DNA of 64,000 bases from Geosiphon pyriformis uo1. Its lineage: Eukaryota; Fungi; Glomeromycota. The DNA lies in assembly GCA_016748015.1 (NCBI GenBank), contig JAAOMT010000523.1:1067270-1131269 (forward strand), given 5' to 3'. Of this stretch, positions 4,440 through 40,147 are shown one piece after another. The notes beneath the pieces were generated by a model. It saw nothing but the letters and a program-made list of their open reading frames with translations. It was not told where the DNA came from and made no database searches. The translations under genes were made by a program, and so were the position numbers. Numbering within the stretch: position 1 is the stretch's first letter; each line of letters begins with the position of its first letter.

Positions 4440-4698
4440 ATATTTTTTGATAATCTGCTTTTTCACTTGTTACTAAAATTAGTTTCTAAATATCTAATAA
4501 TATTTTCTTAATTTATCTTGTTTTAAAAAAGTCTATTCTTTTTATCTGTGCAATTTTACTGAATTTTTTCATTTCTTTACTTAATATTCATTCATGGCCA
4601 ATATCACAAAAAACACAATTAGAGACATTTGAATTTATAAACTGTGTTTTTTTATCTGAACTCGAAATTAATTTGATTTAGTAATAAAGTTAGAATGT
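4440..4698 (-). pseudogene. 3' continuation of the transposase-like gene split by B1 (lower boundary approximate)
   Basis: Reading frame continues across the TSD: ...FCT(R)/SNFITKSN*FRVQIKKTQFIN... Confidence 0.5.
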
Positions 4699-5538: not shown

Positions 5539-5552
5539 TTATTCTCTCCTTT

Positions 5553-6182: not shown

Positions 6183-6239
6183 TTTTTTTTTGTTGTCTTT
6201 GTTGCATATACCGTGTTTTTTTATACTTTTTTGGTTTGT

Positions 6240-7622: not shown

Positions 7623-7822
7623 CTTTTATTATATTTTTGAGTTGAAATGTTTTTAAATTTGTCTTATTCATAACAAGCTGTCTGCATTTTCATTTTTTTT
7701 CCTTTTTTGTAATGTACTGTATAATTAAATAGTAAAATTTCTATTTTCCATCTGACATAATAATTGTCTGCAAATTTTTTGTTTTTGAATTAAAGTCAAT
7801 ACTTTGTGATTAGTGTACACAT

Positions 7823-8678: not shown

Positions 8679-8692
8679 TTATTCTCTCCTTT

Positions 8693-9331
8693 TTAATATT
8701 GAGCTCCATCAAGATTTTCCAAATCTTTTAACTCTAATTTTCTGTCTTTGAATATTTCTTGAACTCCTTTTTCGAGAATTATTTGAGTTATTTTGTTCTG
8801 TAATTTTTCAAACTGGGTGTTGGTTATCTTTCCCATTTGGTTAACTATAATGGAGTCCATTTCTGGATTAAGTAAAATTTCTAGTCTGTCATGGAATCTA
8901 GTATGCAATTAATAGATGGCTCTTACTTGTGTTGTTAGATTGTTTTTTCCCACAAATTGTTCCAGTTGTTGCAGTATTGTTGTGTTGAATAATTGTTTTG
9001 TTTTATCTGTGTATAAGTTCTGAATATTCAAGTGTTACCTCAAGTGGAAGTAACAAAAGTTTCTTGGAAATTTGTGTATCCACCATTTCCAAGTCTCTTT
9101 GGTTAACTTTTGATATGTGGTAATACTTGTTGGTTCTTCTATTGCTAATTTTATTTTCAGAACCATTTTGTTAATAGTGTTTTCTGTTTTTCTTTGACTT
9201 TTGTATTTGGGTATCTTTCTGGTATCTCAGTATCAAATGGTTTGTTGATTGATAGTAATTTCTATATTTTGTTGTTGGATCAGTTGAAAGATTTGTTGTA
9301 TAAGTGAGTGAATGTTGTCAGTAATTTCCAT
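8693..9331 (-). pseudogene. B2 ORF3, accessory protein (~212 aa, several transition-type stops)
   Basis: Manual translation MEITDNIHSLIQQIFQ...CYFHL...VRAIY*LHTRFHDRLEILLNP...NQMGKITNTQFEKL; homologous to C/D/E ORF3. Confidence 0.8.
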
Positions 9332-9391
9332 TTTTCTGAAGTCTTCTGTCACATTTACCATGTTTTTATATCCTCTTTTTATTGTTCAATT

Positions 9392-10767
9392 TTATGTGTT
9401 TGGTCCAATGATTATGATTGGTTCCAAATCTCATGGAATCTTATTTGGTTGGATTAGTATTCTAGTATTCCTAATTGTAGAATATTATTGGTGGATGGTA
9501 ACACTATATGGTAATATGGTTTCAGTCAATCACTATGTGCTGCTTTGGCTAAGATTTTGTTGTTCTATCTTAATTTATAAGCTTCATTTCCAAGAATTTC
9601 TTCTATGTAAAATGATTTGTCTCATTTGGGGTCAAATTTTTCACTCTATTGTTTTTCCACTTTGATACGATGTAGAAGTACTTTGTCTCCAATCTTGAAT
9701 TCAACTGGTTTCTCTAATAGTTGGTTATCATGTCTTTTTTTTTGTTTTTTTTGTAACTTTTAGATGTTATCAGCTGCTTTTTGCTGTTTGTTTTCTAGTG
9801 TTTTCATTAAGTCATATGTTCTTTTTAGCAACATTTCCTGAAAATTGTCTTCAGTTATTGGTTTTGTTAGATAAGTATTGACTTCTATCTCAACTGGTAA
9901 TGTTGCTGTTCTACTATATACTAATTCAAATGGTGTTGTTTGTATAGTGTCTTGTTTTATTGTTTGGTAAGCAAATAATACTGATGGTATAAACAAATCC
10001 CATTTGTTCTGGTTTTCTTGGCTGATTTTGGCAATTGCTTCACACAATGTTCTATTAAATTTTTTTACTAGCCCATTGGTTTGTGAATGATATGGTAATA
10101 ATAATGGTCTTTTAATTCCAAATCTTTGGCTTAATTCTGTCAATGTTTTGTTCACAAAGTAAGTTCCTTGATCTGATAGTAGTTCTTTTGGACATCTGTG
10201 TCGACAGATCAAATCTTGATAAACAAATTTGGCAATGGATTCTGCATCTGCTCTTTGAATAGCTTTTGCTTCTGGCCATTTTGTGAGATAATTCATGGCT
10301 ACTGCAATATATCTGTTGTCTCTGCTGGTAATTGTTAATGATCCAACTAAGTCAATTCCAATATGGTCAAATAGTTGTCTCACTTTGATTGGTCTCAATG
10401 GTTCACCGGGTTTTGTTTCATCTCTTCTTTGACAAACATCACAACTTTGAACATATTGAATAATGTCCAGATATATTAATAGCCAATAATATCTTTTCTT
10501 GGTTTTTTCCATGGTTGCTTCTTTGTGAAAATGTTCTGTTGTTAGATCTGAATGCATGTTGAATAGTATTGTTTCTTTTTCTGATTCTGTGATTACTCTG
10601 GTTGGTTAATCTGGATTTCTTTTGTTCTTTTGGTAAAGTATATTTTGATAGTTTATAAAATGTTTTGATTGTTGTTTTATGTTGTTTTGTTCCTTTTGAG
10701 ATAATTTTTCCTTGAACAATTGGGTATTTATATAATGTTAGAGTTGTTGGTATTTTTGTATATTCAT
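9392..10767 (-). pseudogene. B2 integrase, separate ORF
   Basis: ATG at 10767. ORF 9760-10557 has HHCC, GIDLVG, LLSDQG and KFNRTL motifs. Confidence 0.92.
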
Positions 10768-10797
10768 TTTTTGTTATATTTTTGGGTTGAAATTTTT

Positions 10798-13700
10798 TTA
10801 GATTTGTTTTATTTATGACAATCTGTTGGCATTTCCATTGTCTTTTTTCTTTTTATAATATACTATATAATTGAATAGTGAAAGTTCTATTTTCTATCTA
10901 ATATGGCAATTGTCTCTAAATTCTTGCTTCTGGATTGAAATCAATCCTTTGTGATTTATATATATTTCAAACTTTTGGCTCAAGTATTTTTTCCATTTCA
11001 TAACTGTCCAATAGATTGCTAAGTGTTCCAATGCTAGTGTTCCATAGTTTTTTTCAGCTAAACTCAAGCTTTGGCTGGTGTATGCTACTGAATGTTCTCT
11101 TCTATTTGGTTCTTTTTGTGATAGTACTGCTCCCAATGCTTGGCCTGATGCATCAGTAGTGATAATAAATGGTTTGCTGTGATCTGGATACATCAATACT
11201 GAAGCTTAAATAAGCTTTCTTCTCAGTGTGTCAAATGTTTCTTGTTGAGCTTCTGTTCATTCATATTTTACATTCTTAGTTTGTAAATAATAGAATGACT
11301 AGGCCAATTTAGAAAAGTCTTTAATAAAATGACTATAATAGCCTGTAAATCCTAAAAATGTTCTTAGTTCCGTCAAATTGGTTGGTACTGGAAAGTTCTT
11401 TACTATTGCAATCTTATTTGAATCTGTCTTAATACCATCTTTGCTTATAACATGTTCCAAAAATTTGAGTTTTGTTTTTTCAAAGAAACATTTGTTTGCA
11501 TTCAACTTCAATCCTGCTCTTTTCAATCTTTCAAATACTTGTTGAAGATGATGTAGATAATCATTAAATGTCTTGGAGAACACATTTGTGTTGTCTAAGT
11601 AAACAATTACAGATTTCCATAGTAGTCCAGTATAGACAATTTCCATGAGCTATTGGAATGTTGCTGGTGCATTCATCAAGCCAAATGGCATTACTTCAAA
11701 TTCAAAAATTTTTTCTCGCATTGTAAAAGCTGTTTTCTTTTTATCTTCTGGTTTCATGGCTATCTGCCAGTAACCACTGTCTAAGTTTAATGTTGAAAAC
11801 CATTTTTTTTCTCCAAAAGCATCAAACAGCTCTTGAATTTTTGGTGTTGGATAGCTATCTTTTTTGGTTACTCCATTCAACTTCCAGTAATCTACACAAA
11901 AGCAGATTTTCCCATTCTTCTTCCAGACTAGTACTATTGGTAATGACTATGGACTTATTAATGACTGAATTAGTCCATTGTCAAGCATTTAATTAATTTC
12001 TTGACAAATGATCTCATGACTAGTTAGTGGTACTCTGTATGCTCTCTGTTTAATTGGTATTGCATTTCCAGTCTTAATTTAATGTTGAATAATGTCAGTT
12101 TTGCCAAATTTGTTTTTGCTGGCAAAATGTCATTGAAATTGTTGAGTAATATCTTGAGTTGCATATGTTGTAGCGGGTCTAGATTTTCCAAGTTCATCTG
12201 TTCCAATTGTTCTAGTTGAAGTAGATAACATTTTTCTCATCCATAAATTGTTTGTGATGTGATATCTACATATCCACACAGTTGTAGAAAGTCTAGAATG
12301 GTGTTTGGTGAGTGGTTTTCAATTTTGGTGGTTAAGTATCTAATGATAGTTCTTTCTAGTATCTTGATGATATTTCCTATGTTGTTATAAATAGGAATTT
12401 TGATGTGACTGTGGTTTTTGGCTAATATGTATAGATTAACTAATCCAAACTTTTCTGATTCACAAAGTGTTGCTTTTGCCTCAAAAATCTGTACTTGATT
12501 TTTTACTTTTCTGTCTATAACTACTATGTACTGGTCATATGATAGAATGAAAATTGTTTGATGGGTAAAGATAATTTCTTCCTTGTCAATAATTTCTTCC
12601 TCTGCCATATTTAACTGATACATCTATTCTACTTGTTGATCCAAATTTTTGTATTTCTCTAGCCATAATCCCTAATTCTTCTCTGTTTCTTACTGATACT
12701 AATTGAGCTACTTTCACTAGAGACAGAAATATTGTCTGTGCTATCTTTTTATTTGGCTCTATAACATAGGTCTTTTCTGAATTGTTTTGTAGTATTGAAA
12801 TGATATTTCCCACATATTCTGCATCAATTATTCCTCCTCTGATGTTGATTCCTTTTTTCACTAGACTACTCCTAGATGCCAGTTAAACTATTGTTGTTGC
12901 TGGGATTTCTAATGCTATTTTGAGATCAATGCATGTGTGCAAATGTGGTTCCAATTTGATGATATCTTTTTTTGGATATCTTAGATCAAATCTGGTATTA
13001 GTATCATGTACATATTCTGGCATAATACCTTCATTGTTATTGCTGAACCATTTAAGTTTCTGCTTCTTAGAGAGATCAGAAAGTGTGATGTATGTTTCGG
13101 AATTTGAATCAGAGTCTGAATTATCATAATTTTTATTACTATTTTGAATGGAGCTGGAACTGTTATTTTTATTGTTATTGTTGTCAGAGTTTGAATCGGG
13201 ATTAAAAGTTGATTCTAATTCTGATGCGCAGCTGCTGATTGGTTTCTCCTTTTCTGGGATTGTGTAGATCATGCAGATTGGTGGATTGTAAATGAGATCA
13301 CATTTATTACAATATTGAAAGTTATATGAAATTAAACAATGGTCACATAGTTTTGTATTTATTTCTTCCAACTATTGCTCTTATTCCTCTCTAGTAGGTG
13401 CTAATTCCTGGTAGTATTTATGAAATTGTTCTGGATTCAATAGATTTATGACTGGTTCTGGGTTCCAGTCAAGTTCTATAAGTTTTGGTGAATTGTTTTT
13501 TATTATTTTTATTTCTTCTGGTGATGCTTCTTTGATTTTGGCAAGAGCCATTTGCCAAATTTTGTCATCATCATATGGACATCCATCCAAGTATTTGATG
13601 GCTTGTCTTTAGGCAGCATCTATGGGCATTCTTTTTCTAATCCAGTTACTTATGAGAATTGTGTACTAACACGATTTGTCACATGTTCCTCTTTGTCCAG

Positions 13701-15937: not shown

Positions 15938-16713
15938 TGTTACGAGTAGAATTTTAGCTATTTATTAGCATGAAATTACTCTTATAATTACTATTATTAA
16001 TTAGCATATATTATTATTATTTTGATTATCACTTATTATTTAATCAAATTATTAAATATTATTACTCAATCAATAATCCGATTTGTACTCTAGAAATTAA
16101 GATGATCAAATTACACAATACTCTGAACCATTTAATATAGTCAAAATTCGCCGAAATTAATGAAAATTTGTCGAAATAATCAATAGTTCAATAAAATAAC
16201 TTGTAAATTCACCAAAATGTATCTTTAGTTTACCCAAATTCTAGCAAAAAGAAAAGTGCAAGTTCAAAGACTAGTATTACAACAAGTTGTATAAAAGAAG
16301 AGCTTTTCTCTTCAAGAAAATGTATCTTTTCATAGTATTTTAACATAGTATCTTACTTTAGATATCTTAATTAAAACAAATCACCTTTTATACATTCAAA
16401 TAAAAATTAAATATTCGAAAAACAAATTCTTAAAATTATTGCACTTGAAATTCTCTCAACACAATTAACATTTTGAAATTAATTAGCTACCAATTTCAAT
16501 AATCTGTTAGTGACTTCAGGCCTGAATAGAAAACGTTTTTCTTGATAAAATTCTATTTCTTTTACATTTCTTTTATTTTTCTTTTCTTTTCTTATTATAA
16601 TCATTAGGGTAGCTTACAGATGAAATTCCTGTAGAAGAGTTGACTTTCACAGCAAAGTAACTACACATTTTAGTGAGCTTCTAGATAAGTAATTCCTGGA
16701 AAAGAGTTGACAT
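15938..16713 (+). repeat. C 5' LTR, left part (interrupted by D)
   Basis: Aligns to 34541-35316; TATA-like GTATAAAA at ~16289. Confidence 0.93.
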
Positions 16714-17697
16714 TGTTACCAGACAAAATTAAAAATATTGTTTAGCATAGAATTACCCTTATAAATTTTATCATTAATTAACATATATTATTGTTTCAAA
16801 TTATTACTTATTACATTAGCAAAATATCCGAAATTATCATTTAATTAATAACCCAATTTGTACATAACACAAATGTAACCTAATTGTAATGATCAATCAT
16901 GTAATACCCCGAACTATGTAACATTCAAAAAGTTTGTCAAAATTTGTAAGAAATTTGTCAAAATAATTGATAGTTCGCCAAAATATCTAATAGTTTGCAG
17001 AAATAACTTGTAGTTCGCCAAAATGTATCTTTAATTCAATGAAATTATAGAAAATAGCAAAGTTCAAGTTCATAGAATAGTGTTATGACAAGTTGTATAA
17101 AAGAAGAGCTTCTCTTTTCAAGGAAATGTATCTTACTTCAGATTTAATAATTAGAATCATCTTTTACATACAAAAACAAAATAAATATCAAATAATTCGA
17201 AAAATCAAATCCTTAATTATTTCCCTTGAAATTAACCAAACCCTACTAACAGTTGAAATTGATTAGCTACCAATTTCAGTAGACTGTTAAAGCATTTTCA
17301 GGTCTGGATCCAAAACGACTTCCATAAATTATCAGTTTTACTTTTTCTTTTACATTCCCTTTATTTTCTTTCTTTTCTTATTATAAATCATTTGAGTATC
17401 CTGCAGACAAAAATTTCTGTAGAAAAGTTGACTTTCACAGCAAAATAACTACACATTTTAGTGAGCTTCCAGACAAGCAATTTCTGGGAAAGAGTTGACA
17501 GTTACTACAATGTAACTATACAAAGTAACTGGCATGGAATTGGCCATTCCACTTATAAGCCCAGCAGTTCAAATTATAGAAGATAATTTGAAGATAAATT
17601 CAGTTATCAGAGGTTCAAACACTTCCCATAATCGTGAATTAACAGTATTACAACAAACATACAAGAGCTAAGAAGAGACCAAAAACCTCTAGTAACA
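16714..17697 (+). repeat. D 5' LTR (984 bp)
   Basis: TGTTACC...AGTAACA; matches 25616 to ~26500. Confidence 0.93.
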
Positions 17698-17699
17698 TT

Positions 17700-17715
17700 T
17701 AGTGCTCTCCCACGG
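17700..17715 (+). promoter_or_regulatory. Primer-binding site T(A/G)GTGCTCTCCCACGG
   Basis: Two nt after the LTR end; the C copy reads TGGTGCTCTTCCACAG. Complementary to a tRNA ending in GAGCA-CCA. Confidence 0.8.
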
Positions 17716-17741
17716 AAACAACACAGCAAAACAACTTCAAA

Positions 17742-20700
17742 GTGGCGACCATACCAGATGCAACAACTCTAGAGTATTACCAATCAATTTACACCCACTG
17801 CAAGCAAAGATTCAACATTCCAGACGGAATTGAAGTTTTCAAGAAATCAGTATACCAATACATTAAAAACCGCATCAAAAATTATCTTTTTGGAAATTAC
17901 AATATCTCAGAAATTAGAAGCAACTTTTACAATAATTTAGCACACTATTCACAGTTGAGAACTGAAGACTTTAACAGTGAAACACTTGCCATTTACTTTC
18001 AAGAACTTAACTTTAACATTATCAAGTACTGTAAATAAACATATCCAGTGCAGTCTCAATACTCTATTGATTTTGAATTGGAGACAAAAACAAGCAACAA
18101 AAGCAAACAAAAATTGAAGCAATACTCAAAAACCACCCCAAATACCCCAATACTACCAAAAACAACTGCCAAACACTTACAAACACTTGAACAAGGAACC
18201 AGTTCAAAACTTCCACTCACCATCACACTTTTTCCAGCTTCACTTGCACAAGCACAAACACCTAATTCATTCTTGAATCAATTTGCAAGACTAAAAGATT
18301 TTACATCACTCAGAAGTCCCGCCAGACAACAAGAACCTCTTCAAACTAGTTCCAATCTTCTTGACTTCTAGCTGAAAATTGAAGTGAACACTCTGAGACA
18401 GCAGCAAACAAAGAAAATGACTTTGAAATATCTGAAAAAGAATCAATAGACAGTGAAAATAAAAAAGATGAAATGACAGCATACATCACAAAAATCTCTG
18501 AATTCAATGGAAAAGATATTGAGACCAGTTCCCAAGAATGGCTCAACCAAGTTACTAAAACTGGAGATGCAAATAGATGGAATGCTACCAAAATGTTAAG
18601 AACAATTCTCTACTTTCTCAAAGGAACAGCAGATGAATGGTTTGAAAACTTGACCACCCCTTTTAATGACTGGACAGCTTTCAAAACTGCCTTCTTAGAA
18701 CAATTCACTGATAACAACACTTCAATCACACTTCAAAATCATTTTCGCAATATCAAACAAGAACCCTCTGAATCTGTCATGACTTATATTGGGAAATTTA
18801 ACAAACTTCTCAGATGAATTCACCAACTTGAAACTAATGATTATTATTTCAATGCTCAAATCTTGGATTAATTTATTACTGGTTTAAAGGATAAACTGAT
18901 TAAAAAGATTTGCCTACATGCCCCAGAAGATTTAAACACTGCCATACAGCATGTGAAAAGATACGAAATGGCCATGGAAGAGACCAATTACACAAAACTT
19001 GTAAATTTGGCAATTGGAGAAACCAGCTCAGTAGCTGAGGAGAAAATTGACCAACTGACAAAGAAGGTTGAAAACTATTTCACCAATCAACAACAACAGC
19101 AACCCCAAAGATATCAACCACTCCAAAGACAAAATCAAAATAACTTTGCACTACTTTCTAATAACCAGCCTCAGAATTGCCATTACTGTGGAATCTCTGG
19201 CCACTGGAAAAAAGATTGCAGAAAGCTACAGTGAGACCAACAAAATAGGAGTAATCAATGTTACCCTCCACCACAGCAATCTTATTATCAACCACCACCA
19301 GCTTACTATTCACCAAGACCCCAATACCAAAGTAACTATTATCAGCCTGCCTCACAGCTGATCCAACAGCAATACCAACAACCATCCACACAATATTACC
19401 AAGTATCTGCTCGAAGATTGACTCCACAAAACCAATTCATACCACAAAACTGATACCAAGTAAACAACAATAGAATCAGTTTGAACAACCAATTGGTTCT
19501 CCGAAATTCTGCTCAACCAAGACCCAACTACTATCACACTCAACCCAGTTATTTAACAATACCTAAAGAACAGAATTTTCACCATACTGTACTCTCGGAA
19601 GGTAGAGCTACAGCACAACAACAAAACCCTTCCTATACTCCTATCACAATCCCACCAGCCAGAATTGCTGAAAATGCCAATCTTTCAGATATATTTCCTT
19701 TTGAGTTTGAAGCAAATGAGTTACCATTTCTGTTTAGTAATGCAGCTGTCAATAAACAAAAAGCAATCATGGCTATGTACACTGAAGCAGAAGTCGAAGG
19801 AAAGGCAATTTGCTTGATCCTAGATAGTGAATCTGCTGGAAGCATTATCACCTACCAGTTAATGCAACAGTTAAAAAAAAATGTTGACCGACCAGCTCAA
19901 ACAGTAATTGTTACTGCCGATGGCATAAAAAAGACTCCAGTAGAAGAAATTGACAATTTTTCATTCACTTTTAATGGAATCACCATTTCAGTCAAAGTTC
20001 TTGTAATAGATGCATCCCAGTATTAAGCCCTTTTTGAAAATGATTGGCTCCAAACAACCAATGCAAAATTAGACTGGGAAACCCAAGAACTACAAATCTC
20101 TTACCAAAGACAACATGCCCGAGTACCTGCCACTTGTAGTACATTTAACAAATGCTCTGAAAAAGCCCCAGCTTTTGAATTTGAACCAGAAGAAGAAAAA
20201 CCAATAATCAAAACATTCATGGCTCTTGGATCAATGTCCAATTGGGCCAATGAAACTGAACAAGAACATTTTACACCACACTCTGAACTCAAAACCCCTG
20301 GATGGAATATCCCATACTCAAAGTCTGAACTAAGGAAACAACACTCCTACATTCCTCTTAAATGTAAGGACTGCCACAAAAAACTATCATCAATGAGAGC
20401 CTGCATTTTACCTGAAGAAGAATATGAAAATCATACTTGTTATTACTACAAGACTTGTCACAGAAAACAATGGGGCCATTTAATAAAAAGAAGCGGAAAA
20501 TGGGATAACACCTCTTGTTTGACTTGTGGAGATATGCTACCAGAAGAATGCAATTAGATTGATGTAGCAATGAGAGAAAAAGTCTGCAATCAGATCTGCC
20601 AATATGCTTTATCAATTTCAAAAAAAGTAAAAAGAAGAACACTCTTTAATGCAGCATACAACAGTGCTCTCAACAAACTTTATCACTACCTCCATGATGC

Positions 20701-23346
20701 TGAGATAATTTTCGACCTAGCAATAGCATTAATTAATAGAGCTACCAAAGAAAATGTTCATCAAATAAAGGAAGCAGAATACATTGAATACACTATGGAA
20801 TTAGCTGGATTCGATTATGAAGATGAAGTAGAAGTCTACCACCAAATTGCAAGTTACACCTACCCAACCCAAGAAGCTCAAATTCAATGATTAGAGCAAA
20901 TGAACATTAGGCTATGTGAAGAATGCATTATGCTTTGTGATGAACAGTAGTGTCTTAAATGCTATGCTCTTAAAATCCCCTTGCCTAGTAAAAGTAATGA
21001 AAACGAAATTGAATTTGAAAAACCTGAAGCAATGGAAAAAATTGAAACAACACCCATCTATCTTATCAAAAATCAGCCTGCCTTACAACTCAAATACTTC
21101 AACAACAATAAACAAGGAATAAAACCTGAAAAAGCACATAAAATTGATGCTGAATATGACCTAAGATATCCAGACAAGCATACTTTTGTTCTCAAACCCA
21201 AATTTCTCACAAAAATCAATCTTAAAATTGCACTCGAAATCCCACCAGGAGCAATGGTTCAAATCACCTTCCAGTCCTCTCTGGCAAGCAAAGGAATCAA
21301 TATCAGAGGAGGAATAATCGATGCTGGATATACTGGAGACATTACAGTGATGCTTTAAAATGAAACTGACAAACCATTCAAAATTGAACATGCTGAAAAA
21401 ATTGCCCAAGCTATTTACCTACCCCTAATCAACATTTTGGGTTTGCAACTAGTCAATCAAAGAAAACAATTAGGAAAAAGCAATAGAGGAACCCAAGATT
21501 TTGGTTCAACTAGACGATTTACAGTTCCAGTTAATATAACTCTTAATACACAGAATGAATCCCACCAGATTTTCAGACTTCCACAACCAATTACTATCTC
21601 ACTCTTTGGAGAACATCCAGAAATCTACACCTGCCCAAAGCCAACAACCACACAACAAATTTTGGAGTCCAATAAACAAGTCTGCTTGGAACATAATATT
21701 TTGATTCCAAACATTTATATTCCAGAAGGAACAAAGAAAGTCCAAGTTACTTTTTACAATCCCAATAATTACCTCATAGTTTTATTAAATAATTTAGAAA
21801 TTGGAGTTATTCATAGTAATATATTTCAACAAGAATTACCCCAAACAGTCCCCAATTTTTCAGAAATCATTGGACATTCATTACCAAAAATCAACCCAAA
21901 CCCTAGCTCTAAAAACTACCATGTTGTCATAGAAAAACTATCTCAAATCAACATGGGACAACTTGAATCACAACAACAAAACCAGTTCAAAAAGCTAATT
22001 GCAGAATTTGCTGATATCTTTGCTAAAAACAACAATAACTTAAGAAGAACCAATTTGGTCCAACACCAAATTTATACAGGAGATGCCAAACAAAGAAAAC
22101 AACAAACATATCAAGTTGCTCCAGAAAGTCACCAGTTCATCTGAGAAGAAGTACAACAAATGCTTAACAATGGACTCATCCAAGTCCTTGGGCTTCACCT
22201 GTAGTGCTAGTTAAAAAGAAAAATAGAAAGATACAATTTTGTGTTAACTATTGACAACTCAACAGTATTACAATTGGAGATGCCTACCCCCTTTTCCGAA
22301 TTGATGACATGTTAGATGCCCTTGGAAAATCCAAATACTTTTCAACACTAGATTTGGAAAGCGGTTACTGGCAAGTTGCTATGGATTCTAAAGATCACCC
22401 CAAAACAGCATTCACCACTCAAGGCGGAAATTACGAGTTCAATGTAATGCCTTTTGGATTATGCAATACACCAGCAATGTTTCAGAGATTAATGAATGTT
22501 GTGTACCAAGGACTCCTTTGGAAGTCAGTAGTCATTTATCTTGACGATACTGATGTTTATTCTCCATCGTTTGAATTACACTTAAAACACCTGCAAAAAG
22601 TTTTTCAACAATTACGAAAAACAGGACTAAAACTCAACATTGAAAAATACTACTTTGGAAAAACAAGCTTGGCTTTTCTTGGTCATATCATTAGTAAAGA
22701 TGGAATCAAACCAGACTTTGGAAAAATCAGCACTGTTAAAAACTTCAAAACTCCTCAAAACACTACAGAACTAAAAGAATTCATAGGGTTAGCCTCCTAT
22801 TATCGGAAATTTATCAAAGGATTCTCAGAAATCACAAAACCTCTCAACCAGCTTACCACCAAAAATGTTAAATACGAATGAACTGCTGAATGCCAAAATG
22901 CATTTGAAATCCTCAAAGAAAAACTAACGACAGCTCCAATTTTTGCCTACCCAGATTTCAGCAACTGATTCCGATTAGCAACAGATGCCTCTTATACTGC
23001 CTTTGGTACTATCCTATCACAATTAGATGACAATGGAAATAAGCAAGTAATTGCCTATGCTAGCAGAACATTAAAACCAGCTGAGAAAAATTATCCTGCC
23101 ACTGAATTGGAAACAGCAGCTGTAATTTGGGCCTTACATTATTTCAACTTTTATCTTCAGCCAAAGGAATTCGATATTATTACTGATAATATTGGACTCA
23201 AATGGCTTTAGAACAAAAATACTCAGCTAAACGCAAAACAAACCTGATGGACAGGATTTCTAGCAAACTATCAATACATAATACATTATAAACCAGGAAA
23301 ACTCCACACCAATGTTGACTGTCTCTCCAGAATGAGACAAAATTAG
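17742..23346 (+). pseudogene. D ORF1: N-terminal extension, capsid, CCHC, protease, Cys-rich region, dUTPase, RT, RNase H (fused gag-pol ending after RNase H)
   Basis: Fragments 18473-22144 are all in one frame. CHYCGISGHWKKDC; ILDSESAGS; GGIIDAGYTG; IYLDD; ATDAS. Ends SRMRQN-TAG at 23344-23346. Confidence 0.93.
21115..21515 (+). pseudogene. dut: dUTPase domain of D (trimeric type, motifs 1-5)
   Basis: DAEYDLRY, QSSLASKG, GGIIDAGYTG, EKIAQ, RGTQDFGST. Confidence 0.92.
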
Positions 23347-23395
23347 AAAAAAAAAACCAACACTTAACTTAACCAACCAAAACAGCCAACAAAAA

Positions 23396-24781
23396 ATGAA
23401 TTTGGAAAACTACAACAATCTTAAACAATATTTGAAAACATTAACAATCCCAACAGATTGGTCTCCAGATGAAAAACATCGATTACAACAACAAGCCAAA
23501 CAATATTTTCTACACAACAATATTATTTATCAGCAAAATTTCAAAAACCCAAACAAACCACTCAGATTAATACAAGAACAGGAAAAAGAGACTATATTAT
23601 ACAACATGTACTTAGATTCTTCATCAGCACACTTTGGAAAAAACAGCACCACTTAAAGAACACTAGAATACTACTTTTGGTCTCGAATGAGAAAAAACAT
23701 TCATGAATATGTCAAATCTTGTGATAGTTGTCAAAGAAGAGGAGAAACACGCCCTACTGAACCATTAAACCCAATTAAAGTTGGACAGCCTTTTGACAGA
23801 GTTGGTATCAATTTAGTCGGACCACTACCTATCACAAACCAAAGAAACCGTTATATTGTAGTAGCTGTAGACTATCTCACCAAATGGCCTGAAGCCAGAG
23901 CCATTCAATGAGCAGATGCAAAATCAATAGCAAACTTCATTTATAAAGACATTATTTGTAGACATAGATGCCCAATAGAACTTTTATCTAATCAAGGAAC
24001 ACATTTCATGAACAATTTAATCCAAAAAATTTGTGGACAATTTAATGTCAAGAGACTATTATTTTCACCCTACCATCCACAAACCAATAGATTTATAGAA
24101 TGTTTCAACAGAACATTGTGTAAATCATTAGCCAAAGTTTCAACCAATTTTGAGCAAAAATGAGATTTCTTTATTCCATCAGTATTATTAGCATATAGGA
24201 CACTAAAACAAGATACCACAAAACACACACCATTTGATTTAACTTACAGAAGGACGGCAATGTTACCAATTAGTTTTACAGTGGAAACATACCCAGCACA
24301 ACCAATCGATGAAAACAATTTCCAAGAAATGCTTCAGCAAAGAGTCTACACTCTGTTTAGCACATTGGAAGGAAAATGACGAATAGCAACCATCCATATT
24401 GAACACTCTCAAGCTCAACAAAAAGAATGGCATAATGACAAATTGCCTCCAGTCACCAATGAATATAAAATTGGAAACAAAGTTCTCTTACACAGAACTA
24501 AAGCTGAAAAACAATGGAGTGGAAAATTTGAGAATAAATGGGATAGACCATTCTTTATCTATGAAGTTTTAGACAACGGATCATACAAGCTAAGACTTGA
24601 TGACAAAATCCTAGCAAAAGTTGTACATGGAGATCATTTGAAACACTATAATTCCAGAAACAATCTTGAACCATTAATTCTACAAATTGGTACACATTCT
24701 CCTTTAATCAATCCCAAAGACATTCCCCGAAACTTAGAACCAATAGTTGTCATTGAACAACTCCCCAACTTGAACACTTAA
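23396..24781 (+). pseudogene. D integrase, separate ORF
   Basis: Own ATG at 23396; AHFG...CDSCQ, GINLVGPL, KWDRPF...GSYKL. No chromodomain. Confidence 0.92.
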
Positions 24782-24927
24782 TTTCAATTTTATTATAGTT
24801 ATTCCCTTATAATTTAAAAACATATCACAACAAAAACAAAACAAAGCACGCTGAAAAAACAAAAATAACATAAAAACTCACATACCAAAAATAATTTTAT
24901 TTTTATTTTTTTTCTAATTTCATTATA

Positions 24928-25647
24928 ATGACTATCCCTCAAAATATTCAACAGTTATCTCAAAAATTAATGTTAGCTTTAAAAACAATACCCGAATTAT
25001 CCATTACTATCACTAGAAAACATATTAATTATACCCAAACAGAAATAGTTACAAATCTAGCCCCAAATTCACGAAAGTATCATCCTTATAGGAAAAACAC
25101 AAAAAGTTATTCTGGAATTCATTTACCAGAACTTTTGAAGCTTGCTTTAAGAGAAAACTTATTGCTCACCCTTATTAATATTTCACTAAATGCTACTATT
25201 CAACAAAAACTTTAACTGTGTCTTAATGAAGAAAATGGCAAATACCTCCCAATATATAGATATTTTTATATTGGAAAAACACTTCATGAGCAAAAACTAG
25301 AGCTTACATCAGCAAACCTCACAAAAAAAGCTATTTGGAAACAACTCTACAACAAATTCAAGACGACAGCTGGACCTACAAACAGTCATTATAAACTAAG
25401 AGCTGCTCTTAGACTTTATGACCTATTCTACACCTGTGAAAACGTCCTGTAAAACCCAATTTTACAGCCTTTGAAGATTCAATACATTGGAAAGCTCACA
25501 GAACTGAAATTTCAACAATTTTCAGACCAAATTTCTTCAATAATTTTGGATTACTATCTGGAAATTACAAACAGTACTTGGACTTTGACAAAGCTCAGTT
25601 TTGAGGAGGAGATTATGTTACCAGACAAAATTAAAGATATTGTTTAG
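24928..25647 (+). pseudogene. D ORF3, accessory protein (~239 aa, two CAA>TAA stops), reading through the PPT into the 3' LTR
   Basis: One frame: MTIPQNIQQL...RYFYIGKTLHE...YKLRAALRLYDLF...IQYIGKLTELKFQQF...EEEIMLPDKIKDIV*. Confidence 0.85.
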
Positions 25648-26598
25648 CATGGAATTATCCTTATAAATCTTATCATTAATTAACATATATTATCATTTCA
25701 AATTATTCCTTATTACATTAGCAAAATATCCAAAATTATCATTTAATTAATAACCCAATTTGTACATAACACAAATGTAATCTAATTGCGATGATCAATC
25801 ATGCAATACCCCGAACTATGTAACATTCAAAAAGTTCGCCAAAATTTGTAAGAAATTTGCCGAAATAATTGATAGTTTGCCAAAATATCTAATAGTTCAC
25901 AGAAATAACTTGTAATTCACCAAAATGTATCTTTAGTTCAGCAAAATTATAGAAAATAGCAAAGTTCAAGTTCATAGAATAGTGTTACGACAAGTTGTAT
26001 AAAAAAAGAGCTTCTCTCTTCGAGGAAATGTATTTTACTTCAGATTTAATAATTAGAATTATTCTTTACATACAAAAACAAAATAAATATCAAATAATTC
26101 GAAAAATCAAATTCTTAATTATTTCCCTTGAAATTAACCAAACCCTACTAACAGTTAAAATTGATTAGCTACCAATTTCAGTAGACTGTTAAAGCACTTC
26201 CAGGCCTGGATCCAAAATGACTTCCATAAATCATCAGTTTTACTTTTTTTTACATTCCCTTTATTTTCTTTCTTTTCTTATTATAAATCATTTGGGTATT
26301 TTACAGACAAGAATTCCTGTAGAAGAGTTGACTTTCACAGCAAAGTAACTACACATTTTTAATGAGCTTCCAGATGAGCAATTCCTGGGAAAGAGTTGAC
26401 GTTTACTACAACGTAACTATACAAAGTAACTGGCATGGAATTGGCCATTCTACTTATAAGCCCAGCAATTCAAATTATAGGAGATAATTTGAAGATAAAT
26501 TCAGTTATTGGAGGTCCAACTACTTCCTGGAAACGTGAATTCACAGCAAATCAACATTAACAAAATTCAAGAAAAGTGACCAAAAACCTCTGGTAACA
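25616..26598 (+). repeat. Chimeric LTR (D-type left part, C-type right end) shared by D and C
   Basis: Left ~800 bp match the D 5' LTR; the last ~90 bp match the C 3' LTR end rather than the D end; followed directly by a PBS. Confidence 0.88.
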
Positions 26599-26643
26599 TT
26601 TGGTGCTCTTCCACAGAAATAACACAGCAACAACAAATTCAAA

Positions 26644-29600
26644 GTGGTGACCACACCAGACACAGCAACTCTAGAGTATTATCAGTCAATTTACACCCAC
26701 TGCAAGCAAAGATTCAACATTCCAGACGGAATTGAAGTTGTCAAGAAATCAGTATACCAACACATTGAAAACCGCATCAACAATTATCTTTTTGGAAATT
26801 ACAATATCTCAGAAGTTAGAAACAACCTTTACAATAATTTAGCACACTATTTACAGTTGGAACTGAAGACCTTAACAGTGAAATACTTGCTACTTACTTT
26901 TAAGAACTTAATTTTAACATTATCAAGTACTGTAAAGAAACATATCCAGTGCAGTCTCAATACTCCATTGATTTTGAATTAGAAACAGAAACAAGCAACA
27001 AAGACAAACAAAAAGTGAAACAATATTTAAAAACCACACCAAATACTCCAATACTACCAAAAACAATTGTCAAATACTTGCAAACATCTGAACAAAGAAC
27101 CAGTATCAAATTATCACTTTCTATTACATCATTTCCAATTTCACTTGTTTAACCACAAACACCAAGTTCACCACTTAACCATTTCTCCAAATCAGAAGAT
27201 TTTCAGTCACCTAGAAATCCTATTCAACAGCAGGAACCAATATCAACCAGCACCAATATTATTGAGTATTTACAGGAAATCAAAAGTAATCCTTCAGAAA
27301 ACTTGAAAAGTGAAAAAACTGAATCAAAACAAGAAAAAACTATAGAAAACAAAGAAGAAATGGCAACTGCTTACATTGCAAAGATTCCAGAGTTTACTGG
27401 TGAAAATAATGATACCAGTCCTCAAGAATGACTTGATAAAGTCCAAAAAGCAGGAGATGTAAATGGTTGGAATGCAACAAGAATGCTCAAGGCAATTCCA
27501 TACTTTCTCCAAAGAACTGCAGGAGAATGGTTTGAAAACTTAGAACTATTTAAAAACTGGCAAGTATTTAAAGATGCTTTTTTACAACAATTCACTGACA
27601 ATAATACCTCTATCACTTTCCACAATCACTTTTGCAACATCAAACAAGAAACATCTGAAACTGTCATGACCTATCTTGAAAGATTCAACAAACTCCTTCG
27701 ATGAATTTGACAATTAGAAACCAATGACTACTATTCTGATGCCCAGATTTTGGATTAGTTTATAGCAGAATTAAAAAACAAACTCATTAAGAAAGTCTTT
27801 CCACATGCACCAGCAGACTTAGCAACTGCCATTAGACATGCAAAAAACTATGAAATGGCAATAAAAGAAGCAAACCACACCAAACTTGTCAACCTAGCTA
27901 TTGAAGAAACCAGTTCAGCAGCTGAAAAAAAGATAGACCAACTTACAAAAAAGGTTGAAAACTATTTTACCAACCAACAACAACAGCAGCAGCAACCACA
28001 AAGATATCAACCACCACAACGACAAAACCAAAACAACTTTAGATTACTATCCAACAACCAATCTCAAAATTGTCATTATTGTAGAATTTTAAAACACTGA
28101 AAACGAGATTGCAGGAAATTGCAAAGAGACCAACAAAATAAGAGTAATCAACATTATTCTTCACCACAACAATCTTATTATCAACCTCCACCACCAACTT
28201 ATTATTTACCAAGACCACAAAATCAAAACAATTACTATCAACCAGCTCCACAACCAATGCAGCAACAGTATTAGCAACCTTTACCAATTCAGCAATATTA
28301 GACACCACCCACTCAACAATATCAAGTGCCAGCCAGAAGATTGGTTCAACATAACCAATTCACACTCCAAAATCAATTTCAGAATAACAATAACAGAATC
28401 AACCCAAATAATCAGTTGGTTCTCCGAAATTCTGGTCAACAAAGACCCAATCACTATCACACTCAACCCAGTTATCTTATAATGCCTAAAGGATCGAATT
28501 TTCAACAACCTGCACTTTCTAAAGGTGAAGTTGCAGCACCAAAGTCAAATCCTTTCAACAATACCATTTCACCAGCTCAAATTGCTGTAAATATCAATCT
28601 CTCAAATATATTTCTATTTGAATTTGAAGCAAATGAATCATCATCCTTGCTTAGTAATGCAGCAGCTAATAAACAAAAAGCTATTACTGCCATGTACATT
28701 GAAGCTACAATAGAAAAAAAGCCCATCCGATTAATCCTAAACAGTGGATCAGCTGGAAGTATTATCACCTACCAGTTAATGCAACAGCTTCAAAAAACTG
28801 TTGACAGACCAGCCCAAACTGTAATTGTTACAGCAGATGGTATGAAAAAGACACCAGTAGGAGAAATTGACAATTTCCTATTTATCATTGATGGAATTAC
28901 CATTCCAGTTAAAGTTCTAGTCATGGATGCACCCCAATATCAAGTCCTGGTCAGAAATAATTGGCTTCTTAAGGCCAATGCAAACTTGGACTGGGAAACT
29001 CAGAAACTAAAAATCTTATACCAAGAACAATATACTATAGTACCTGCTACTTGTAGTACTTTTAACAAATGATCAGAAAAAGTCCCAGTATTTGAATTTG
29101 AAGAGGAGAAAGAAATGCCACTTACTGAAACCTATATGGCCCTTGGATCAACATCTAATTGGGCTGAGAAAACAGAACAAAAAATTTTTGAAGAATCAAA
29201 AGGATAAAAGAAAGTTAGATATTCTACACCAGAACCATGGAAACAACCACTCTATATTCCACTCAAATGTAAAGATTGCAACAAGAAACTTTCATCAATG
29301 GGAGCATCCATTTCTCCAGAAGAGAAATATGAAACTTGTATCTGCTACTTTTGTAAAGCATGCCATAGAGAATGATTTGGATATTCCAAAAGAAATGAAA
29401 AATGAGACAAAACATCTTGCCTCACATGTAGAAATATACTACCAAAAAAATGCAACTGGATTGATGTTGCAATGAGAAGAGGAGTATGTGATCAAACCTG
29501 TTAATATGCTCTATCAATTTCGGAAAAAGTCAGAAGAGAAACATCATTTGATGCAGTATATAATAGTGCTCTCAATAAACTTTACCACTACCCTCATGAT

Positions 29601-32248
29601 GCTGAAATGATTTTTGACTTAGCAATGGCATTAATCAATGAAGCCACCCAAGAAAATGTCCATCAAATAAAAAAAGCTGAATACATTAAGTATACCATGG
29701 AGTTAGCTGGATTTGATTATGAAGATGAAATAGAAACATACCACCAAATTGCAAGTTATACATATCCAACCAAAGAAGCTCAAATTCAACAATTAGAGCA
29801 AATGAACATTCAATTGTGTAAAAAATGTGTTATGCCTTGTAATGACCAATGGTGTTTAGAATGCTATGCTCTTAGCATTCCCTTGCCAGATGAGAATGAT
29901 GAAAATAAAATAAAATTTGGAGTATCTGAACTAGTAGAAGAATTACCAATCACTCTCATCTATCTTCTTGAAAATTAACCACCTCTACAACTTAAATATT
30001 TCGACAACCATGGCCAAGGAATCATACCAGAAAAAGCACATGAAATTGATGCTGGGTATGACTTAAGATACCTTGATTCTCCAACCAAAGTTCTTGACAA
30101 AAATCAACCTCAAAATTGCTCTTGAAATTTCACCTGGAGCAATGATTTAAATTGCATCCAGATTATTATTGGCAAGCAAAGGAATCAATATTAGAGGAGG
30201 AGTTATAGATGCAGGATATATTGAAGACATTATCATCATGTTACAGAATAAAACAAACAAACCATTCAGAATTGAACATGCTGAGAAAATTGCCCAAGCA
30301 ATTTACTTATCCTTAATCAACATTTCAGGTTTACAATCAGTGAAAAACAGAGAACAATTGGAAAAAAGTGAAAGAAGAACTCAAGGTTTTGGTTCAACTG
30401 GACGATTTACAGTGCCAGTAAACATAGCTTTCAATACACAAAATGAATCTCACCAGATTCTTCAACTTCCCCAACCAATTACCATTTCATCTTTTGAAGA
30501 ATATTACGAAATTTACACCTGCTCAAAACCCACCACTACCCAACAAATCTTTGAATCCAATGAACAAATCTGTTTAAAGCATGAAATCTCAATCCCAAAC
30601 GTTTATATTCCTAAAGGAATGAAAAAATTTCGAGTTATATTCTACAACCCCAACAATTACCCTATTGTCCTATTAAATAAACTAGAAATTGGAATTATAC
30701 ACAGCAATATTTTCCAAGATAAAAACCCTCAAATTGTCTCTAATTTCATCGAAATTATAAGACATACATTACTTCCAAATCCAAACATCACCCCTACTAC
30801 TGAAAACTACCATCTGTTGGAAGAAAAACTCTCTAGAATCAACATGAATCCCTTAGAACCCCAACAACAAAGACAATTAAAACAATTGATAGCTGAATTT
30901 GCAAATATATTTGCAAAAGACAACAATGACCTGGGAAAAACGGATATTGTCCAATATCAGATCCACACAGGAGATGCTCCACCAAAAAGACAACAAGCTT
31001 ATTGAGTGCCACCTGCCAACCACTAATTCATCAGAGAAGAGATCCAAAGAATGCTCAATAACGAATTAATCCAACCATCAAGAAGTCCATGGGCCTCACC
31101 AGTAGTTTTAATTAAAAAGAAAAACGGAAAAATCAGATTCTGTGTTGATTATAGACAACTGAATAGTATTACAATTGGAGATGCCTACCCTCTTCCAAGA
31201 ATTAATGATATGTTAAATGCTTTAGGAAAAACCAAGTTCTTCTCAACTTTAGACTTGGAAAGTAGATATTGGCAAGTCGAAATGGACCCAAAAGATCGAC
31301 CCAAAACAGCATTTACCACTCAAGAAGGAAACTATAAGTTCAATGTTATGTCTTTTGGACTCTGCAATGCACCAGCAACATTCCAGTAACTTATGAATGT
31401 TGTATATGAAGGGCTCTTGTGGCAATCAGTAGTTGTTTATCTTGATGACACTAATGTGTACTCACCAAGCTTTGAAGCCCATCTTATTTACCTGCAAGAA
31501 GTTTTTCAACAATTATGGAAAGCAGAATTGAAATTAAACATTGAGAAATATCACTTTGGAAAAACAAGTTTAATCTTTCTTGGACATATTGTTAGCAAAA
31601 ATAGAGTCAAACCAAATCCTGAAACAATCAGTGCTGTCAAAAACTTTCAAACTTCCAAAAATACCACAGAGCTATGAGGATTTGTAGGATTAGCCTCCTA
31701 CTATCGAAAATTCATCAAAAAATTCTCAGAAATTGCCAAACCACTTAATTATCTCACCAACAAAAATGTGTCTTACAAATGGACAGAAGAACAACAAAAA
31801 GCTTTTGAAACCCTCAAAACAAGACTGACAACAGCCCCAGTTCTTGCTTATCCAGACTTCAACAAATGGTTTCAACTAGCCACTGATGTTTCACACATAG
31901 TATTTGGTGCCATCTTATCACAATTGGATGAAAATGGCCAAGAACAAGTCATTGCTTATGCTAGTAGAATACTCAAATCAACAGAACTCAAATATGGCTC
32001 AACTGAATTAGAAGCTGCTGTAGTCATTTGGGCTCTTAAACCCTTTCAACAATACTTAGAATGAAAAAGAATTTGACATCATAACTGACAATATTGGTTT
32101 CAAATGGCTTAATAAAAAGAAAACTGAATAAAGTGCCAAACAGTCTCGATGAAATGACTTCTTAGCAGACTACAAATATATTGTATACCACAAACCAGAA
32201 AAACTACACACCAATATTGATAGTCTCTCAAGAATGAGACAAGATTAA
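26644..32248 (+). pseudogene. C ORF1: N-terminal extension, capsid, CCHC, protease, Cys-rich region, dUTPase (~30015-30405), RT, RNase H
   Basis: LILNSGSAGS; GGVIDAGY and RRTQGFGSTG; VYLDD; ATDVS. Ends SRMRQD-TAA at 32246-32248. Confidence 0.93.
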
Positions 32249-32306
32249 ACACCAACAACAAATCCAACACAACTCACCAACTTATCAACACAATAACCAA
32301 ATAACA

Positions 32307-33692
32307 ATAGATTTCAGAAATTACAACAATCTTAAAAACTATTTGGAGACTTTTACTATACCAGAAAATTGGTCTCCAAGTAAAAAACATCGATTACAAC
32401 ACCAATTTAAACAATATTTCATACACCACAACAAAATCTATTACAAAAATTGTAGAAATCCAAACCAATCACTCAGATTAGTACAGGAAAATGAAAAAAA
32501 AACAATCCTATACAACATGTACACAGATCCATCTTCAGCACACTTGGGAAGAGATAAAACAATCCAAAGAACTCTTGAACATTATTTTTGGCCTCAAATG
32601 CAAAAAGACATTTGACAATATATAGAATCTTGTGATAGTTGTCAAAGAAGAAAAGAAACTCACCCCACAGAACTTTTAAATCCAATTAAAGTTGGACAAC
32701 TTTTTGACAGAGTTGGAATTGATTTAGTCGAACCATTACCTATCACAACCCAAGGAAATTGCTATATTGCAGTAGCAGTAGATTATTTCACCAAATGGCC
32801 TGAAGCTAGAGCCATCCAAAGAGCAGATGCAAAATCAGTAGCAAATTTCATCTATAAAGACATTATCTGTAGACATGGATGCCAAATTGAACTTTTATCT
32901 GATCAAGAAACACATTTTGTAAACAACTTGATACAAAAAATTTGTGAACAATTCAATGTCAAAAGACCTCTATCATCACCTTATCACTCTTAAACAAATG
33001 GATTTGTAGAACGTTTCAACAGAACATTGTGTGAATCTCTAGCCAAAGTCTTAACAAATTTTGAGCAGGAATGGGATATTTTTATTTTATTAGTGTTACT
33101 AGCATACAGAACACTAAAACAAGATACCACAAAACACACATCATTTGATCTTACTTATGGAAGGACAGCAACATTACCAATTAATTTCACAGTGGAAACA
33201 TACCCTGTGCAACCAATTAATAAAGAAAACTTTCAAGAAACACTCCAAAGAAAAGTCTACACTCTTTTTAATACACTGGAAAGAAAAAGAAAGATAGCAG
33301 CAACTCATATTGAACATTCCCAAGTTCAACAAAAAGAAAGACATGACAACAAATTACCACTCATAACCAACAAATTTAAAATTGGAAATAAAGTTCTTTT
33401 ACACAGAACTAAGGCCAAAAAACAATGGAGTGGAAAATTTGAAAACAAATGGAATGGACCATTTTATATTCACGAAATTCTAGGCAATGGATCATACAAG
33501 TTAAGACTTGGTAACAAAGTACTAACAAAAATTGCACATAGAGATAGATTGAAACACTATCATTCCAGAAATAATCTTGAACCATTAATTCCACAAATTG
33601 GTACACATTCCCCTTTAATTAAACCTGAAGATATTCCCCGAAATTTAGAACCAATAATTATAATAGAACAACAGCCAAACTTGAACACTTAA
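32307..33692 (+). pseudogene. C integrase, separate ORF
   Basis: Starts at ATA (position of D's ATG) 58 nt after the RNase H stop; HHCC, DDE and WNGPFY motifs. Confidence 0.9.
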
Positions 33693-33852
33693 TTTAACAT
33701 AATTTTACAATAATCTTTTTAATATAAATACACAAAGAAAAAATAATAAATAATTACAAAAACACACAAACCCAAAAACAAATAAAACCCCATATCCAAA
33801 AATAATTTTCTTTATTCTTTTCAAACTTTGTTATTAATTAGTCATTTTTATC

Positions 33853-34560
33853 ATGATTATTCCCCGAAATATTCAACAAATATCCCAAAAATTAATGTTA
33901 GCTTTGAAAACACTTCCTGGTTTGTCTATAACGATTAATAAAAGTCAAATTAATTACATTTAGAAAGAAACCACAGCCCCAATAGTAAATAATTCTCAAA
34001 ACTATCACTCTTATAAAAGAAAAACAAGAGGTCACTCTGAAAATAGGTTACCAGAACTCTTAAAGCAAGCACTAAAAGAAAACCTCTTAATTGCCCCTAT
34101 TGACATTTCACCAAATGCCACAATGCAACAAAAACTTTTACTATTTCTCAATGAACAGAACAATGAACATACCCTTATATATAGATATTTTCATATTGGA
34201 AAAACACTTTATGGACGAAAACTAGAACTTGAAGCAACCAATATCACTCCTAAGAATATATAAAAACAAATTCACAATGAATTCAAGACAGCAGCTGGAC
34301 CAATAAATACTCATTATAAACTTAGAGCAGCATTTAGACTCTATGATTTATTCAACACTTGTGAAAACGTCCTACAAAATCCAATACTCCATCCAATGAA
34401 GATTCAATACATTGGAAAGCTCACAGAACTGAAATTTCAACAATTTTCAGACCAAATTACTTCAATTATCTTGAACTATTATCTTAACATCACAGATAGT
34501 GCTTGGATTTTGATGGAGCTCAGTCTTAAGGAGAAGATTATGTTACCAGTAGAATTTTAG
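33853..34560 (+). pseudogene. C ORF3, accessory protein (~235 aa), overlapping the PPT and 3' LTR
   Basis: MIIPRNIQQISQKLMLALK...RYFHIGKTLY...YKLRAAFRLYDLF...IMLPVEF*; no frameshift relative to D ORF3. Confidence 0.85.
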
Positions 34561-40095: not shown

Positions 40096-40147
40096 TAAAA
40101 GTGGTACTCTCTGTGAGATTGTCAAAATCCACTTTGTTTCCTATTGT

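Follow-up and report, generated by a model that had tools for sequence, protein, structure and literature searches.

Sequence evidence for a clade of fungal Ty3/gypsy retrotransposons with a separately encoded integrase, from a decayed element of Geosiphon pyriformis

The locus

Element D occupies positions 16714 to 26598 of the window, by which we mean the whole 64,000-nucleotide (nt) stretch analysed here (positions 1,067,270 to 1,131,269 of contig JAAOMT010000523.1, assembly GCA_016748015.1) of the fungus Geosiphon pyriformis uo1, a species whose genome comprises 41.2% long terminal repeat (LTR) elements (PMC11952901) and which is the source of the closest named relatives of D. Judged from its sequence, D is dead and belongs to a wide clade of fungal Ty3/gypsy LTR retrotransposons in which the integrase (IN) is encoded apart from the rest of Pol. 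A preliminary description of this DNA had read D as an LTR, a primer-binding site (PBS), one frame from a Gag extension through Gag, protease, zinc module, dUTPase and reverse transcriptase (RT) to RNase H, a stop, a separate integrase, a third open reading frame (ORF3) reaching into U3, and an LTR. This layout was borne out, with the following features:

15938..16713, + strand: first 776 nt of the 5' LTR of element E, broken by D; 93% identical to E's 3' LTR (34541-35512)
16714..17697, + strand: 5' LTR of D, 984 nt, within the 5' LTR of element E
17700..17716, + strand: PBS-like tract, 2 nt past the 5' LTR; TAG in D, TGG in E
17742..18469, + strand: N-terminal Gag extension, coding by its indel pattern, with a putative GUG start at 17742
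18470..19225, + strand: Gag capsid domain and CCHC knuckle (Pfam PF03732, PF19259, PF00098)
19784..20011, + strand: decayed aspartic protease (PF13650, below the curated cut-off)
20345..20992, + strand: Cys-rich putative Zn module between protease and dUTPase
21125..21511, + strand: dUTPase between protease and RT (PF00692, E=1.5e-17)
22213..23346, + strand: RT and RNase H, terminating at TAG 23344-23346
23347..23395, + strand: RNase H-IN spacer, 49 nt, A/C-rich with a single G, lacking any AUG or predicted structure
23396..24781, + strand: stand-alone integrase frame with its own ATG; H2C2, DDE core (rve) and SH3-like domains by Pfam
24782..24927, + strand: IN-ORF3 spacer, with no consensus TATA box
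24928..25647, + strand: ORF3, 239 codons with two internal stops, running through the polypurine tract and 32 nt into U3
25603..25615, + strand: polypurine tract (PPT)
25616..26598, + strand: 3' LTR of D, D-type for ~780 nt and E-type for the last ~190 nt, followed by E's PBS

Both LTRs are bounded by TGTTAC...GTAACA, and Pfam places the domains in the order Gag, CCHC, protease, dUTPase, RT, RNase H and then IN. D bears 22 internal stops and two frame breaks, and its Gag extension shows one stop and one frame break; the earlier statement that every copy here is mutationally dead holds for D, and all window copies are heavily mutated (CpG observed/expected ratio of 0.25 in D).

Integrase separation across the clade

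At all six RNase H/IN junctions of the window (elements D, E, F, G, B, and B2) a stop falls just past RNase H and IN is separate. In D, the stop TAG 23344-23346 lies four codons past the RNase H end motif and the IN ATG at 23396 stands in the +1 frame relative to RNase H. In E, F, and G, too, the IN start is in the +1 frame, and in B and B2 it keeps to the frame of RNase H, with two or three stops intervening; its codon is ATG in D, B, and B2, and ATA in E, F, and G. Relatives were taken as the best 80 of 423 confirmed metagenome loci (labelled L), from 14 of the 64 parts of the collection, and in 14 of the 80 the IN frame runs off the contig. The end of RNase H is present together with the start of IN in 25 loci, two near-duplicate pairs being counted among them, and none of these is fused. 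In 21 of the 25 the gaps range from -14 to 521 nt and are spread over the three frames (9/4/8); gaps so varied, in all three frames, exclude a single shared frameshift or readthrough as the source of IN. Moreover, RT and IN trees, built as quick trees with no named outgroup, were congruent, and the ratio of nonsynonymous to synonymous substitution rates (dN/dS) between D and E was 0.23 for ORF3, 0.20 for IN, and 0.13 for RT, denoting purifying selection on ORF3. From these comparisons the split integrase is a clade-wide trait, and the architecture is real and unusual within Ty3/gypsy; the unusual lineage described earlier, with a stop after RNase H, a separate IN, and a conserved, selected 3' frame, is thereby upheld. 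Against its wider reading stands the sampling, since the 80 loci were ranked by similarity to stand-alone IN and fused relatives further out are under-sampled; the sample therefore says little about where the split began.

Viral contigs yielded no relative of D's IN, and one distant match to the alignment. A literature search aimed at a gypsy clade with a separate integrase found none; Repbase, GyDB, and most subscription papers were outside its reach, so absence from print is not established.

Making a separate integrase

One long frame comprising extension, Gag, protease, Zn module, dUTPase, RT, and RNase H is closed in the DNA by the conserved stop. We consider it somewhat more probable than the opposite that ribosomes terminating at this stop re-initiate at the IN AUG, after scanning the unstructured A/C-rich spacer in the D lineage; in other subclades a stop/start overlap, or an RNA motif ahead of the IN AUG, would take the spacer's place. 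Re-initiation is favoured because exact stop/start overlaps, short bare spacers, and a structured element all occur among the junctions, which show no consistent splice acceptor or positioned TATA box. The -3 position of the IN AUG is a purine in 38 of 41 loci, whereas internal Met codons have one there in 132 of 216 cases; +4 is a purine in 41 of 41, partly forced by the second residue. Stop/start overlaps (UAAUG, AUGnxUGA) occur in 4 of 21 relatives and fit the coupled termination-reinitiation patterns described for victoriviruses, hypoviruses, SART1, and LINE-1 (PMC5972666), of which LINE-1 is cited there for a 63-nt spacer, short like the 49 nt of D. In those systems coat protein/RNA-dependent RNA polymerase or ORF1/ORF2 are joined, whereas here the break falls inside Pol. 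Taken as a whole, the best explanation, to which we give a probability of about 0.55, is a separate IN made by re-initiation, together with an optional ORF3 that probably has its own internal TATA promoter. Such an IN could not enter the particle within Gag-Pol and would have to be recruited via genomic RNA, Gag, or RT.

Several observations weigh against re-initiation. Cis-driven termination-reinitiation is described with a typical stop-start proximity of 14 nt (PMC5972666), whereas here 4 of 21 relatives lie within that distance and most gaps are longer, 49 nt in D and up to 521 nt elsewhere. No UGGGA, the core of a calicivirus-type termination upstream ribosomal binding site, was seen in the 90 nt before the stop, either in D or in any of 21 relatives; AUGs in the spacers are not clearly depleted (24 seen against 31.7 expected). 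TATA boxes precede IN in 7 of 41 loci compared with 1.8 in shuffles, a weak excess given that the reverse-strand control gave 4, and TATAAA stands at -109 of IN in D, making a subgenomic IN mRNA possible.

The principal competing explanation is that IN, like ORF3, has its own subgenomic or spliced mRNA, giving three transcription units and no re-initiation, which we regard as possible but rather unlikely. The strong start context, the gaps of up to 521 nt, some with upstream AUGs, and the small TATA excess, to which TATA boxes at -90 in B can be added beside that of D, all agree with it, as does the foamy-virus precedent of a Pol made from a spliced mRNA (PMC5035957). Nevertheless, the TATA positions ahead of IN are scattered and the reverse-strand control is raised too, 8 of 21 relatives have no YAG within 40 nt of the IN AUG and none occurs in the spacer of E or B, and a separate mRNA has no need of the exact TAATG overlaps seen in two separate branches (L019, L063).

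Further frames with no assigned identity lie directly before IN in L017, L025, and L052, and in L063 (7458-8258) a coiled-coil-like frame lies between IN and ORF3. An in-frame stop between protease and RT reads TGA CTA in all three loci having such a stop (L010:870-875, L015:3290-3295, L035:3358-3363), presumably a leaky readthrough context.

A structured RNA motif ahead of integrase in a sister subclade

A 46-nt motif lies directly before the IN AUG, once each, in 16 loci, and consists of a short outer stem, an 11-12-nt purine-rich bulge, a 6-bp stem, and a CANNGYGA loop. Together with the Pol tail of the same branch, it is located as follows:

L002:5190-5235 and 15 other loci: RNA motif; variant at L004:22-65
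L002:4345-5163, L011:2417-3271, L013:3494-4438, L024:584-1291: Pol tail

In an alignment of 14 copies, 98% of cells are paired and both partners change in 7 of 10 pairs, the structure having been derived from the same sequences that were tested for covariation; 3 of 500 shuffles scored as high and slid controls gave 0-3. The G-U pairs favour the sense strand. Single copies fold only modestly better than shuffles (z of -0.4 to -2.8) and the held-out L076 folds to a different minimum; the structure therefore rests on covariation. Rfam gave 0 matches at E<=1 for the motif in nine loci, and its exact pattern was found neither in viral contigs nor in prokaryote genomes. The motif is not in the 64-kb window, hence not in D. 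It maps to one branch of the IN tree, with a support of 88 in the Shimodaira-Hasegawa-like approximate likelihood ratio test (SH-aLRT), where Pol carries a tail of 236-315 residues after RNase H; this tail has an acidic stretch and a conserved Cys/His-rich domain that matches no Pfam family and that the Zn module of D does not match either. From its position, the motif may govern IN initiation or serve as a site bound by IN. In an ORF3-less branch, a second conserved spacer motif (CAGGACATGTC...AAACTGTTTCCAGA) stands before IN in L010, L021, and L064.

ORF3 losses and a likely internal promoter

Results on the ORF3 promoter, on ORF3 absence, and on the RNA motif were obtained from sequence alone. 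In a census of the 34 loci with at least 400 nt behind a complete IN, 19 had ORF3 (14 of the positives having built the profile), 9 had PPT and LTR directly after the IN stop, and 6 were left unassigned. The nine ORF3-less split-IN loci form two supported clades (100/100 and 99/99), on a tree from which the six unassigned loci were left out and which needs two changes, although its starred branches leave one origin possible. ORF3 is therefore not needed in cis for a split IN.

A TATAWAWR box at -39 to -62 of the ORF3 AUG occurs in 9 of 16 relatives. Shuffled sequences gave 0.5 (maximum 3 of 500), the reverse strand gave 2, and other ATGs had the box in 16 of 507 cases (3%). Among held-out ORF3 starts, five of eight, from three independent lineages, have the box in range (L063 at -60, F and G at -46, B at -39, and B2 at -43). 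From this positioned box, ORF3 is likely expressed from an mRNA of its own across much of the clade, and the element is probably not tricistronic, as had been proposed for D; a subgenomic mRNA ending in the 3' LTR is quite probable for the clade and less sure for D. Other observations count against such a promoter: the -30 to -70 search window was chosen after the sequences had been seen, 7 of the 16 relatives have no TATA in it, L005 shows an ATGA overlap at IN/ORF3 and no TATA box, and the remaining held-out starts fall outside the range (E at -130, L006 at -146, and D with no consensus box before ORF3). A near-match lies in D ~115-120 nt upstream of the ORF3 ATG, where E (-130) and L029 (-126) have the consensus.

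Nested rather than coupled features

The preliminary description had suggested that its features might be coupled, and that ORF3 could act in trans on LTR hairpins or on re-initiation by analogy to Tat/Rev or P6/TAV. The mapping does not support one coupled system and points to nested features, with the split IN clade-wide and the others restricted: dUTPase, Zn module, and GUG start are found only in the window's D/E/A/B/C lineage, as probable later additions of one sublineage. The dUTPase is present in D, E, A, B, and C, absent from F and G, and absent in the 9 of 9 relatives that span Gag or protease to RT, while the Zn module occurs in D, E, B, and C and in 0 of the 80 metagenome loci.

The Gag extension behaves as coding sequence, with 1 indel in 627 nt between D and E against 15 in the U3 control, and with indels of 6 and 24 nt between B and C, B being in frame to Gag; its first 88 codons give a dN/dS of 0.85 with low dS, as expected under overlapping RNA constraint. 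Thus, the claim of a GUG-initiated extension stands as regards a coding region continuous with Gag, and the GUG start itself is inferred from the conserved caaaGTG, which only D, E, B, and C have; in B an in-frame ATG lies further upstream. The relatives and F have a different, Cys/His-bearing and ATG-initiated extension. As a separate observation, an ATG-started N-terminal Gag domain with conserved H..H..CxxC.P..F..FW.W, from which the D/E/B/C extension diverges, was located at L002:328, L009:2501, L013:6804, and L022:3226, in L035 and L063, and in F at ~40170-40330.

It appears improbable that the clade uses one tricistronic RNA with a trans-acting, TAV-like or Tat/Rev-like ORF3 coupled to split IN, dUTPase, and GUG start, and an obligatory TAV-like role of ORF3 is equally improbable. 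ORF3 is indeed seen only behind split IN (19 of 34 loci and six window copies), some of its starts overlap the IN stop (L005, L009), TAV permits re-initiation over gaps of up to 700 nt with no distance rule (PMC5972666), and ORF3-less copies could receive help in trans. Against this, two entire split-IN subclades have no ORF3, three of the features are restricted to one sublineage, and positioned TATA boxes lie ahead of ORF3. The covarying LTR hairpins of the earlier account, and with them a Tat/TAR-like pairing, found no support either: 1 of 72 predicted pairs was compensatory and the covariation term was unfavourable (+1.9 kcal/mol), in a weak test on the last 310 nt of three LTR copies, two of which are E-type in their 3' part, that took in neither U3 nor B-family LTRs. 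The P6/TAV analogy is weakened by the absence of ORF3 in cis from nine split-IN loci, with supply in trans still possible.

The ORF3 protein

D's ORF3 has 199 homologues, many full length; the best 120 of them are all from Geosiphon pyriformis (identity 62-87%), and named members of the family come from Geosiphon, Diversispora, and Dentiscutata. Homologues are annotated as hypothetical genes in mycorrhizal fungal genomes. Short forms of ~150 residues and the long form of D have a common YxxG...A.R.Y.LF core, and the ORF3 piece of G matches at a probability of 83%; support for the long/short homology is only moderate, at an HHalign probability of 46% (E=2e-4) and a profile E of ~1e-6 to 2e-3 against 10 sequences.

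An AlphaFold model of ORF3 is an all-helical domain with a predicted local distance difference test score (pLDDT) of 94, and a model of the D-type core repeats the helix order at a mean pLDDT of 78, from an alignment that included short forms. Pfam has no family for D's ORF3 and none common to more than two of 47 family members, PDB sequences gave no match better than E=0.44, Foldseek found none at E<=0.001 in PDB and BFVD, and the ESM Atlas returned nothing for ORF3 P0165. The best VIA comparisons reached Z 4.5 (root-mean-square deviation 3.2, 69 aligned) and Z 5.3 (3.9, 84 aligned); neither a known nor a new fold is therefore shown. A similarity of the P0006 core to phage translation repressors (PF01818; ESM Atlas 0.84, 127/256 features) was a lead only and was not used. 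On these models ORF3 would be a conserved all-helical protein without a fold match. The core is mildly basic (K+R 21 vs D+E 14 in P0165, 28 vs 21 in P0006) and acidic in two others.

By analogy with a foamy-virus accessory protein, we tentatively propose, at less than even odds, that ORF3 may be a small nucleic-acid-binding regulator that raises or protects expression of the element, and that it would not be the factor enabling IN translation. A GGAGCTC-like or GGACTC-like word, noted by eye, stands shortly before the PPT with or without ORF3 (3' ends of L007, L009, L017, L022, L029, L031, and L034; window 25590-25615), and the GA...LEEE C-terminus of ORF3 may therefore reflect a cis signal.

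Comparison with known systems

Ty3/gypsy integrases are usually released from a single Pol polyprotein, an arrangement that is usual and not strictly defining, and that is not found in the split-IN clade. Among solved structures, the closest relatives of D are Ty3 RT (E=5e-80) and Ty3 IN (E=1e-36). D and Ty3 are alike in LTRs, PBS, PPT, target duplication, TG...CA ends, and the order Gag-protease-RT-RNase H-IN. In contrast, Ty3 holds RT-RNase H (634-1008) and IN (1042-1449) in one chain, with IN 33 residues behind RNase H in the same polyprotein, whereas here a stop and a new AUG intervene and D has a 3' frame after IN.

A dUTPase between protease and RT, or at varying positions, is described in other fungal gypsy elements (PMC2864245; PMC6431247). 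The elements PosPlaTy3-5 and those of Tuber melanosporum and Phanerochaete chrysosporium resemble D in the dUTPase; the passages concerned describe them as chromodomain-type and mention no separate IN (PMC2864245; PMC6431247), whereas Pfam finds no chromodomain at the C-terminus of the IN of D, the one, decayed copy searched.

Foamy viruses are alike in making an enzyme apart from Gag, and are described as packaging a separate Pol through RNA elements and as having a 3' internal promoter for Tas and Bet (PMC5035957). Their whole Pol is separate and spliced, whereas here only IN is separate; D has no env, its RT matches Ty3 at E=5e-80 versus foamy RT at 1e-24, and ORF3 showed no similarity to Tas or Bet. 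The clade may nevertheless work in a similar way, the likely ORF3 mRNA recalling the expression of Tas and Bet, and RNA-dependent packaging of foamy-virus Pol is the nearest model for how a free IN would enter the particle. Caulimoviruses with P6/TAV share a 3' accessory gene, reverse transcription, and several long frames; they differ in that ORF3 is dispensable in cis in two split-IN subclades, and the Pfam and fold searches listed no match for ORF3.

Ginger1 has a stand-alone gypsy-type integrase of ~400 residues, in which an N-terminal segment precedes the zinc finger, together with terminal inverted repeats of its own and C-terminal protease domains (PMC2836005), whereas here IN lies within LTRs and tracks RT. 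That the split is a decay artefact, or IN a Ginger-like DNA transposase inserted behind RT, is already largely refuted and very improbable: although the window copies are heavily mutated and Ginger1 transposases resemble whole gypsy integrases including the N-terminal YPYY segment (PMC2836005), the same split occurs in loci with long open frames (L002, L011, L013, L063), the stop position is identical in six window copies, RT and IN trees agree, and IN is located between RNase H and PPT.

Neighbouring elements in the window

Elements are nested at 15938-35512: D sits inside the 5' LTR of E, and the LTR common to both is recombinant. Over the final 187 nt compared, the 3' LTR of D resembles E at 95% and the 5' LTR of D at 88%, which makes it a D/E chimera; an ATAG target duplication flanks E, and that of D was lost by recombination. 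E in turn interrupts the gag of the minus-strand element B. B2 and B are tandem IN-ORF3-LTR units on the minus strand, 82% identical (4698-7811 and 7822-10956). The stop/IN/ORF3 layout reported earlier for B and E was found in both, and in B2, F, and G as well; the overlap with U3 does not extend to B, whose ORF3 terminates upstream of the PPT. Elements F (39416-46901, + strand) and G (54851-62510, - strand) are 86% identical, mutually inverted, and constitute a split-IN lineage of their own, which lacks dUTPase, has a divergent ORF3, and carries its TATA box at -46.

Implications

LTR retrotransposons and most retroviruses package and dose integrase as part of Gag-Pol, and a clade that stops before the integrase must solve packaging and dosing otherwise. 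What appears new here, from sequence, is the likely internal promoter of ORF3, the ORF3 losses, and the RNA motif. ORF3 represents a conserved family of proteins for which neither Pfam nor the fold searches gave a match. It is conceivable, though we hold it to be unlikely, that a fungal Ty3/gypsy clade independently evolved a complex-retrovirus lifestyle, in which IN would be uncoupled from Pol, dosed at its start codon by RNA elements of a new class, and brought into the particle without Gag-Pol fusion, with an internal promoter driving a regulator of unsolved fold. In addition, the natural series of junctions, from overlap through bare spacer to structured motif, makes re-initiation after a long frame testable.

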